Shown here: positions 32,161-32,259 of the stretch, in pieces | Numbering within the stretch: the first letter of the stretch is position 1 | Layout of the letters: each line of letters opens with the position of its first letter | Source of the DNA: a virus | Taxonomy: Duplodnaviria; Caudoviricetes | Strand: one strand, 5' to 3' | Virus record (IMG/VR): IMGVR_UViG_3300028025_000089 | DNA length: 64,000 bases | The notes under the pieces: generated by a model | The model's input: only the letters and a program-made list of their open reading frames with translations | What the model was told of the DNA's origin: nothing | Databases searched by the model: none | Position numbers and translations under genes: made by a program

Positions 32161-32259
32161 AGTCAGGTGGAATTTTGGTCCAGGTGTGGTTCGATCCCAC
32201 ACTTTACTGAGAAGTAAGAGCAACTAAGGGCAACACAGGTTCGAATCCTGTCCTGACTA
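32161..32259 (+). ncRNA. tRNA-like RNA with two T-arms and no anticodon
   Basis: AGTCAGG/CCTGACT acceptor; GTGTGG-TTCGATC-CCACAC; ACAGG-TTCGAAT-CCTGT. Confidence 0.7.

Follow-up and report, generated by a model that had tools for sequence, protein, structure and literature searches.

The 99-nt element on the plus strand at positions 32161–32259 of the window, by which we mean the whole 64,000-nt stretch of viral DNA that was analysed, is a genuine, conserved and mobile gene for a non-decoding, tRNA-shaped RNA. It has the acceptor stem and the terminal T arm of a tRNA and a second T arm in its interior, it has no anticodon arm, and it moves between phage genomes as a discrete unit. The ends form a shell that is shared by a large family of phage RNAs, while the middle, here called the cargo, differs from member to member. 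The explanation that we regard as best, and hold to be fairly probable, is that the product is a stable RNA that is processed like a tRNA and serves as a factor-binding mimic.

Architecture of the element

The features of the element and of its surroundings are collected in Table 1, where element positions are counted from 32161 as position 1. The two ends pair to give a perfect 7-bp acceptor stem (AGUCAGG/CCUGACU), with U8 next to it, and CCA is not encoded after the discriminator A. The loop of the D-like hairpin carries a GG in a position to contact the terminal T loop, and positions 12–13 in this loop are the sole variable 5′ sites across the copies of the element. Both T loops are canonical, with a G–C pair closing each loop. 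The preliminary description had taken this stretch for a tRNA mimic that has two T arms but no anticodon, and for a candidate non-coding RNA, and every feature that it listed was found where it had been placed.

Table 1. Coordinates of the parts of the element and of neighbouring features in the window
Feature	Position in element	Position in window	Strand	Basis
Promoter-like site, Bacteroidota-type, TTTG-N20-TATATTTG		31946–31977	+	Consensus match, spacer after tRNA-Leu
Strong leader hairpin GGGGGUGAG...CUCACCCCC, boxB-like position		31991–32024	+	Computed fold
boxA-like motif GTTCTTTGA in leader		32041–32049	+	Motif match
Acceptor stem, 5′ strand AGUCAGG (pairs with 92–98, 7 bp)	1–7	32161–32167	+	Sequence and fold
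D-like hairpin GGA-AUUUUGG-UCC	9–21	32169–32181	+	Fold, pair conservation
Internal second T arm GGUGUGG-UUCGAUC-CCACACU, 7 bp, G–U closing	23–43	32183–32203	+	Fold; invariant, 11 loci
Hairpin UUACU-GAGA-AGUAA, 5 bp, GNRA loop	44–57	32204–32217	+	Fold
Single-stranded linker GAGCAACUAAGGGCAAC, 17 nt	58–74	32218–32234	+	Sequence
Terminal T arm ACAGG-UUCGAAU-CCUGU	75–91	32235–32251	+	Fold; compensatory pairs in L009
Acceptor 3′ strand CCUGACU, discriminator A99, then C		32252–32260	+	Sequence
Adjacent second scaffold RNA (motif 2): GUGUUGUUCCCUUGAGAAAGGAA, variable insert, ACACAGAGGACUUCUCAACCUCA		32262–32348	+	
GOLLD RNA		39254–39666	−	Rfam, window
tmRNA		40369–40786	−	Rfam, window

The 7-bp acceptor stem and the 5-bp T stem with its canonical T loop are those of a tRNA, but no 5-bp stem with a 7-nt loop is present at the anticodon position of the element. 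The sole candidate for an anticodon arm, for which a 5-bp stem, a 7-nt loop, U33 and a purine at position 37 would be expected, is the internal arm, which has a T-loop consensus, a 7-bp stem and U37. ARAGORN made no call on the element, whether or not long introns were permitted, and the tRNA model of Rfam (RF00005) scored 16.7 bits (E = 1.5), below its gathering threshold of 29. No other Rfam family matched at the element at E ≤ 10 when positions 31900–32560 were scanned.

The computed minimum free energy is −31.9 kcal/mol (z = −2.07), and 6 of 200 shuffled sequences fold equally well. The fold statistic alone is modest, and the real support for the structure is its conservation, which is treated below. 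The plus strand is, judged from the sequence, the sense strand, because the T-loop consensus reads on this strand, the G23–U43 pair would be an A–C mismatch on the minus strand, and the 23 tRNA genes of the window point the same way as the element. The minus strand also folds slightly worse. The open reading frames that overlap the element are either short or belong to an antisense frame that runs across tRNA genes.

Genomic setting

The G+C content of the window is about 30%. A domain scan identified a T4-type portal protein, major capsid protein and large terminase, together with CHU_C and SprB domains, which are of Bacteroidota type, in window proteins. Because of these structural genes and domains, the source is by sequence a large T4-like phage and its host is probably a member of the Bacteroidota. 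The source habitat of the phage is freshwater. ARAGORN places 23 tRNA genes between 27.6 and 33.7 kb, all on the plus strand, and GOLLD RNA and tmRNA follow on the opposite strand.

The promoter-like site upstream of the element is likely, from its sequence and position, to mark where transcription of the stable-RNA unit containing the element begins. The pattern has 10 matches in the window, compared with 5.0 expected, and 10 matches were reached by 2 of 100 shuffles. The leader hairpin that follows is kept in the relative G001. The boxA-like motif occurs six times in the window compared with 1.16 times expected, a number reached by none of 100 shuffles, and five of the six lie just 5′ of stable-RNA blocks, namely the tRNAs at 27610 and 29924, the block of the element, GOLLD and the tmRNA.

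On its 3′ side the element is adjacent to a second scaffold RNA, motif 2, which is found at 14 or more loci, often immediately 3′ of a shell, and which has been gained or lost jointly with the element relative to G001. A role of the cargo as a guide or antisense RNA was considered but is unconvincing: the computed pairing of the cargo with the variable insert of motif 2 (−18.6 kcal/mol) was matched by 65 of 1000 shuffles, and that of the linker alone by 21 of 1000, each figure referring to the one cognate pair available. An obligatory association of shells with GOLLD was considered and rejected, since GOLLD is present in 8 of 50 shell-bearing records and missing from all 11 that are complete.

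Conservation and mobility

Exact-core and structure-tolerant scans located the element at 11 loci, which are the window, three IMG/VR contigs and seven metagenome contigs. A 53-nt middle segment is identical in all 11 copies, including 17 positions that had been left free in the metagenome pattern, and the GAGA hairpin is likewise unchanged at positions that were unconstrained in that pattern. Copies differ only at two D-loop positions, in the terminal T loop and in the terminal T stem. All 27 base pairs are preserved in every copy, compared with 38–47% of pairs in slid registers, and in the copy at locus L009 two terminal T-stem pairs show compensatory changes (CG to GC and AU to GC), a result reached by 16 of 500 shuffles.

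The copies are embedded in at least six unrelated contexts, and the similarity of the flanks breaks exactly at AGTCAGG on one side and at CCTGACTA(C) on the other. In the nearest relative, G001, which has a leader 96% identical to that of the window, the segment corresponding to window positions 32155–32351 is cleanly absent and the leader is joined directly to the next tRNA. A more distant relative, L010, carries the element at the same site with 99% identity, whereas the shared leader is 82–91% identical; here a terminator-like hairpin stands directly 3′ of the element. The element is thus a polymorphic, mobile and conserved gene. The preliminary description had named a recent chimera absent from relatives as the explanation that would count against it, and the distribution as a whole does not have this form: the element is missing from G001, but it is at the same site in L010 and at nine more loci in unrelated contexts.

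The invariance of the cargo could reflect very recent spread instead of constraint. Two exact-core scans and one structure-tolerant pattern returned identical cargos alone and no diverged relatives. A covariance model of the element (R1) gave 127–131 bits for the copies in the window and in L009–L011 and at most 40 bits for all other shells, and a search of 98 sources with this model returned no intermediate cargos. The segment AGAGCAA, which follows the hairpin in the cargo, is what the 3′ half of a tRNA D arm ordinarily looks like, and it is frequent among genuine tRNAs at these loci. Together with the T arm it gives parts of the cargo the look of recycled tRNA sequence, as would fit an origin by recombination. 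An earlier guess that a stem with ACAGCAA could be a handle for Ro60 is not supported, since the AGAGCAA of the element is such an ordinary D-arm half.

The AGTCAGG shell family

By sequence, the element belongs to a large and uncatalogued phage-only family with the ends AGTCAGG...CCTGACTA. The shell 3′ end GGTTYRAWTCCNNTCCTGACTA is found in at least 120 IMG/VR stretches, a number that is a lower bound, with up to six copies per locus. The 137 distinct members are 54–181 nt long and have conserved ends and unrelated middles. They have in common a 3′ end, ACAGGTTCGAATCCTGTCCTGACTA, and a 5′ end, AGTCAGGTGGCGGAATTGGTAGACGC, which includes a tRNA-Leu D arm identical to that of the tRNA-Leu gene at 31841 in the window. 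The element, which is the one family member in the window, shares the acceptor sequence AGTCAGG/CCTGACT with discriminator A followed by C, the terminal T arm ACAGG-TTCGAAT-CCTGT, the replacement of the anticodon and variable arms by a non-tRNA cargo, and a place within a phage tRNA array in the orientation of the tRNAs. What makes it atypical is GGA-AUUUUGG-UCC in place of the Leu-type D arm, GGCGGAATTGGTAGACGC, that is present in 95 of the 137.

Among the genomes of 185,579 bacterial and archaeal species, the shell pattern was found on only 18 contigs, all of them from MAGs and about half labelled Bacteroidota. The family was found in no cultured phage record in a blastn search of 50,697 phage records, and in the literature we found neither a match to the sequence nor a description of an AGTCAGG family. 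The possibility that the members are intron-bearing tRNAs was discarded after an intron-tolerant ARAGORN run on the whole family, which returned scattered and arbitrary anticodons. Hairpins capped by a T loop are present in 9 of 120 non-redundant family cargos, compared with 0.48 expected, and no shuffle of 1000 reached this number, which argues that the second T arm is a recurrent and selected design.

The boundaries of the shells resemble those of tRNA genes. The discriminator A is followed by C and not by CCA in 168 of 169 shells and after 22 of the 23 window tRNAs, and a U(−1), which also precedes the element, is found before 120 of 138 shells. RNase P, RNase Z and the CCA-adding enzyme require the acceptor/T-arm half of a tRNA and nothing more. 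From the tRNA-like end signals and these limited requirements we infer that, of the tRNA-like units in its stable-RNA operon, the element comes first and is matured like its tRNA neighbours. The family would have kept a top half derived from tRNA-Leu (AGUCAGG/CCUGACU, A73 and ACAGG-UUCGAAU-CCUGU), with the cargo inserted where the anticodon and variable arms would be. Transcription would begin at the host-type promoter and pass through the leader with its hairpin and boxA-like motif, the 5′ end would be cut by RNase P, and the 3′ end would be trimmed and CCA added, as for the neighbouring tRNAs.

A possible second elbow in the cargo

The second T arm (7 bp) abuts the GAGA hairpin (5 bp) with zero spacer, which gives 12 bp as counted from the sequence. 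The rod formed by the acceptor stem and T arm of a tRNA is 12 bp long. The two hairpins of the cargo could stack into a rod of this kind, capped by a T loop on one side and by a GNRA loop on the opposite side. Ten nucleotides past the hairpin the linker GAGCAACUAAGGGCAAC contains GGG, a spacing equal to that of nucleotides 8–17 before G18 in tRNA. We therefore read the linker as a stand-in for the D region, which would contact the second T loop to make an elbow, and the GAGA hairpin as an "acceptor" stem with a closed end. In the outer unit a separate GG is present in the D-like loop. The inner "D region" is an unpaired, GGG-bearing strand and not a stem-loop.

The order of the cargo, from T arm to closed hairpin to putative D region, resembles that of the permuted domain of the bacterial Y RNA YrlA (T arm, closed acceptor hairpin, D region), and this T-AS-D domain adopts the fold of a tRNA elbow and serves as a substrate for TruB (PMC4201824; doi 10.1101/312249). 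With the cargo in an order like that of a domain that folds in this way, the RNA may be read as two tRNA top halves. The cargo would then be a second top half, circularly permuted and sealed, and the RNA would show two elbows, one open and one closed. No variation is seen in the inner helices, so that covariation speaks neither for nor against the inner fold.

Under the explanation that we favour, the mature RNA would be a non-decoding mimic that titrates or recruits a factor recognising the T arm, the elbow or the acceptor rod of tRNA, so that its role may be that of a decoy or an adaptor. A more specific proposal, which we put forward tentatively, is a two-headed mimic in which each of two complete tRNA top halves stands in place of the other's anticodon arm, and which captures or bridges host proteins that read elbows or T arms. 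It would have one open end that can be completed with CCA and one end sealed by the GNRA loop, and might be one module in a library of exchangeable tRNA-shelled RNAs. Possible targets are tRNA-targeting defence enzymes and RNA-surveillance proteins, and the T5 RNA2 family (see below) may be used likewise. Phage tRNA clusters matter in the fight over host tRNA, and the tRNAs of phage T5, for instance, neutralise the PARIS system (PMC11464382). Any function is expected to be accessory, because G001 does well without the element and the RNA2 region of T5 can be deleted in the laboratory. If the double-elbow reading is true, the element offers a compact model, of 99 nt and invariant sequence, for what such RNAs bind, as well as a natural tRNA scaffold that displays a second folded module.

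Alternative explanations

The main rivals are processing punctuation and selfish mobility. In the first, the shell is a processing mark only, that is, a site for RNase P and RNase Z that frees the leader of about 170 nt and motif 2, and the middle has no function. We consider this unlikely, although it accounts for several observations. Each non-tRNA module in these arrays is flanked by a tRNA or a shell, as in the layout of L009 and in other contexts, and this alternation is kept when shell and motif 2 are gained or lost together relative to G001; the 5′ and 3′ signals of the family are also the same as those of real tRNAs. However, an ordinary tRNA would serve equally well as such a mark, and in L010 the element precedes a terminator-like hairpin, so that there is no RNA to free. 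Neither the invariance of the cargo at 11 loci, where loop and stem positions of the shell vary, nor the strong enrichment of canonical T-loop hairpins among family cargos would be expected of a functionless middle.

The second rival, a selfish tRNA-like cassette that spreads by recombination at its tRNA-like ends or by an endonuclease not seen here, and that brings the phage no benefit, appears improbable. Near-identical copies in at least six unrelated contexts, presence/absence polymorphism among close relatives, and an element better conserved than its flanks are what such a cassette would leave behind. Against this, a domain search found no homing endonuclease domain in the open reading frames of the tRNA array, there are no target-site duplications and no terminal inverted repeats besides the acceptor stem, and the compensatory changes in L009 preserve the structure. 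The T5 RNA2 family, moreover, is stably inherited, with 436 records.

That the element is a Y-RNA-like partner of the Ro60/Rsr ring protein, of YrlA type, is quite improbable in our view. In YrlA the ends form the Ro60-binding stem, and a GNCGAAN0-1G motif is found near the 5′ end (PMC4201824). The ends of the element form a tRNA acceptor stem instead, and its 99 nt contain no GNCGAA. The YrlA model RF02553 (gathering score 69 bits), against which the preliminary description had suggested that the element be compared, gave no match at E ≤ 10 over positions 31900–32560, and none at E ≤ 1 on the copy of the element in L159, though another candidate was found there. The likeness to YrlA pointed out in that description thus may hold for the permuted order of the cargo, and not for membership, which fails on the model match, the Ro60-binding stem and the GNCGAA motif.

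The search for a protein partner gives a similar picture. The absence of a Ro60/Rsr gene from the window, as claimed earlier, agrees with a Pfam scan that found no TROVE or RtcB domain among its open reading frames of 300 aa or more. A frame of 512 aa just after the array was considered as a Ro60 candidate and rejected, as neither a comparison with phage Ro60 nor a PDB sequence search showed it to be Ro60-like. It encodes a conserved phage protein that is predicted to be mixed alpha/beta (pLDDT 76.6 with 27 homologues), and the best match in a fold search was a weak one to an OmpA/MotB-like domain. The point in favour of a Ro60 partner comes from G002, one complete genome with the element, where a gene with TROVE and Ro60-vWA domains lies inside the tRNA array, 1.8 kb downstream of the element and on the same strand. 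A TROVE gene within about 4 kb on the same strand, the proximity looked for in a YrlA RNA, is found for this copy alone and not among the window frames of 300 aa or more. However, a better YrlA-like candidate stands beside the G002 Ro60 gene (33 bits, L159 6798–6861), composed of a T arm, a hairpin of 7 bp closed by a GNRA loop, and a D arm. TROVE is present in 3 of 50 shell-bearing records and in no other record carrying the element, and a tblastn search with the G002 TROVE protein found it absent from the other element-bearing loci searched.

An aberrant decoding tRNA, for example of class II, with UUCGAUC as the anticodon loop (anticodon CGA) and the GAGA hairpin as a long variable arm, is very improbable. 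The internal 7-nt loop does have a U33 and is followed by a hairpin at the position of a long variable arm, but the stem has 7 bp and not 5, there is a U at position 37, the T arm is preceded by 17 additional nucleotides, and the loop is a perfect T-loop consensus with G–C closure. The rejection by ARAGORN and the sub-threshold Rfam tRNA score point in the same direction. A dead chimera or pseudogene left by recombination between tRNA genes, which would fit the absence from G001 and the tRNA-like pieces of the cargo (the T arm and the D-arm half AGAGCAA), is scarcely credible for an element with 11 intact and invariant cargos, 27 preserved pairs and compensatory changes, and with higher conservation than the flanking leader.

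Comparison with known systems

To our knowledge, the non-decoding "tRNA-like stable RNAs" of phage tRNA clusters have stood unexplained for decades. The species 1 and 2 RNAs of phage T4 (rnaC and rnaD; NC_000866 70908–71171) are small, stable and unexplained RNAs located where a phage tRNA cluster ends. A hairpin resembling a T arm, CCGGG-UUCGAAU-CCCGG, lies close to the 3′ end of rnaC, but in the folds of the two RNAs neither an acceptor stem of 7 bp nor a further T arm is clearly seen, and the likeness is one of genomic setting only. The tRNA-like domain of tmRNA resembles the element in that its ends form an acceptor stem and a T arm and no anticodon is present. tmRNA differs in having the G3–U70 identity pair for alanine, pseudoknots and a tag reading frame, whereas the element has U–A at 3–70, is 99 nt long and has no reading frame.

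YrlA (RF02553) is also an anticodon-less tRNA mimic, and as noted above its permuted order resembles that of the cargo. Its Ro60-binding stem with GNCGAA and its location beside rsr have no counterpart in the element, where an acceptor stem and a stemless D region are found instead. The YrlA-like candidate in G002 resembles the cargo in its GNRA-closed hairpin, which makes up 12 bp with the T stem. T5 RNA1 (NC_005859 30501–30644) has a Leu-type D arm, CCGGAAUUGGUAGACGG, a terminal T arm, an acceptor and a long non-tRNA middle, and thereby shows the overall shell-and-cargo layout of the AGTCAGG family. The acceptor sequence is different, and the element itself does not have the Leu-type D arm of RNA1.

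The closest known relative of the element, by analogy of design, is T5 RNA2 (NC_005859 32959–33083), annotated as a misc_RNA, "tRNA-like stable RNA with unknown functions". Both RNAs are encoded in a phage tRNA cluster and have no anticodon loop, and in both the ends form an acceptor stem beside a terminal T arm, which in RNA2 (GCAGG-UUCGAAU-CCUGU) is nearly identical to that of the element. In each RNA, a further hairpin in the interior is capped by a canonical T loop. In an alignment of seven sequences, T5 RNA2 and six relatives, one of them from an Acinetobacter T4-like phage, the loop of this hairpin is TTCGATT throughout and its 5-bp stem occurs in four covarying versions. The second T loop of RNA2 caps a long, interrupted arm, whereas that of the element sits at a junction beside the GNRA hairpin, and the acceptor and D regions differ. 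T5 infects enterobacteria, and the host of the phage that carries the element is probably a member of the Bacteroidota. A blastn search with the element in the 50,697 phage records gave short T-arm matches alone, with no homology to T5 RNA2 outside the T arms. Homologues of RNA2 are present in 436 phage records, mostly unannotated; 24 of the 25 matches listed are in Demerecviridae, the exception being Acinetobacter phage Acj9, and none of these 25 corresponds to the element. T5 deletion mutants that lack the RNA1 and RNA2 regions are viable (PMC11464382).

The element had been proposed as a new tRNA-like non-coding RNA, a claim that has to be narrowed given the large shell family around it and the two T arms already present in T5 RNA2. 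The combination of a tRNA top half with a further T arm is found repeatedly in phages that are unrelated and infect unrelated hosts, here in an element that is conserved and moves between genomes as a unit.

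Conserved segments flanking the element

The anticodon-less element with two T arms is enclosed by two further conserved segments, a leader on its 5' side and a scaffolded RNA, motif 2, on its 3' side. Motif 2 is built from a variable insert between the constant ends GUGUUGUUCCCUUGAGAAAGGAA and ACACAGAGGACUUCUCAACCUCA, and matched no family in an Rfam search. It was found again in at least 14 loci, frequently directly 3' of a shell, i.e., a member of the AGTCAGG family in which a tRNA-Leu-type top half surrounds unrelated middles. The nearest relative, G001, lacks both motif 2 and the element. 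The leader is common to the window, G001 (96% identity) and the more distant relative L010, which carries the element at the same site. It contains a strong hairpin and a boxA-like sequence, GTTCTTTGA, as well as an additional conserved folded segment, GGGAAACUCGUAAAG...GGUGAAACGAGAG, and may constitute a separate RNA that is freed through RNase P cleavage. A boxA-like motif also precedes both the GOLLD RNA and the phage tmRNA of the window. Of 50 viral records that bear shells, 8 contain GOLLD; the 11 complete records among them all lack it.

Features in the window and in L159 (G002:26000-44000), a locus of a complete phage genome that carries the element
Feature	Location	Strand	Details
Partial tRNA	window 30426-30482	+	36 bits
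88-nt unit	window 30668-30755	+	acceptor GGAAGAU/GUCUUCC, T arm, non-tRNA middle
CAU-loop unit	window 30757-30830	+	tiny D arm
151-aa ORF	window 31304-31759	+	within tRNA array; Pfam PF04308 (RNaseH_like), 92.6 bits
Conserved leader	window 31985-32160	+	~170 nt
Motif 2 scaffolded RNA	window 32262-32348	+	directly 3' of element
tRNA, 8-nt anticodon loop	window 32358-32433	+	loop CCGGAAAA; ARAGORN anticodon 'ggaa'
tRNA-like gene	window 32440-32517	+	CAU anticodon loop
Conserved phage protein	window 34425-35963	+	512 aa; just 3' of tRNA array
GOLLD RNA	window 39254-39666	+	full-length; 313 bits
Phage tmRNA	window 40369-40786	-	78.5 bits
YrlA-like candidate	L159 6798-6861	-	RF02553, 33 bits, sub-threshold
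Ro60-like gene	L159 7475-9103	-	542 aa; TROVE + Ro60 vWA
freshwater-1 RNA	L159 12024-12085	-	RF02979, 86 bits; same array as Ro60-like gene

Unusual tRNAs and neighbouring protein genes

The tRNA with an 8-nt anticodon loop has this feature in L010 as well, whereas G001 carries an ordinary tRNA-Phe(GAA) as its orthologue. The 8-nt-loop tRNA may act in +1 frameshifting or may be inactivated. The tRNA-like gene that follows it has a long extra arm and a shortened D region, scores 25 bits with the Rfam tRNA model, which is below threshold, and was not called by ARAGORN. Further non-canonical tRNA-like units occur in the same array (the first three entries of the table). In 22 of the 23 tRNA genes of the array (window 27610-33716), C but not CCA is encoded 3' of the discriminator, and the CCA end must therefore be completed during 3' maturation in this phage-host pair.

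Among the ORFs of the window, the one encoding the 151-aa PF04308 protein recurs most frequently near shells, at eight independent loci in addition to G001. The 512-aa protein has 94 homologues and carries Cys, His, Asp and Asn residues that are invariant; no Pfam domain was found in it. A fold search with its AlphaFold model (pLDDT 76.6) returned a weak OmpA/MotB-like match as the sole hit.

Ro60-like genes, a YrlA-like candidate and T5 RNA2

In the complete 140-kb phage genome G002, the Ro60-like gene sits inside the tRNA array, and the YrlA-like candidate is located about 600 nt downstream of it. Another locus, L086, has a Ro60-like gene, 37% identical to that of L159, which comes after two shells and one tRNA.

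Phage T5 RNA2, a "tRNA-like stable RNA" with a second internal T arm, has matches in 436 records; homologue loci compared here (L161-L166) are from Demerecviridae records and Acinetobacter phage Acj9. Among the 25 matches listed, rna2 is annotated in the T5 record only, and most have no feature annotated beneath them. The record of Enterobacter phage KKP_3711 labels part of the matching stretch tRNA-Arg(ccg), and the match in Acj9 falls under a hypothetical CDS.
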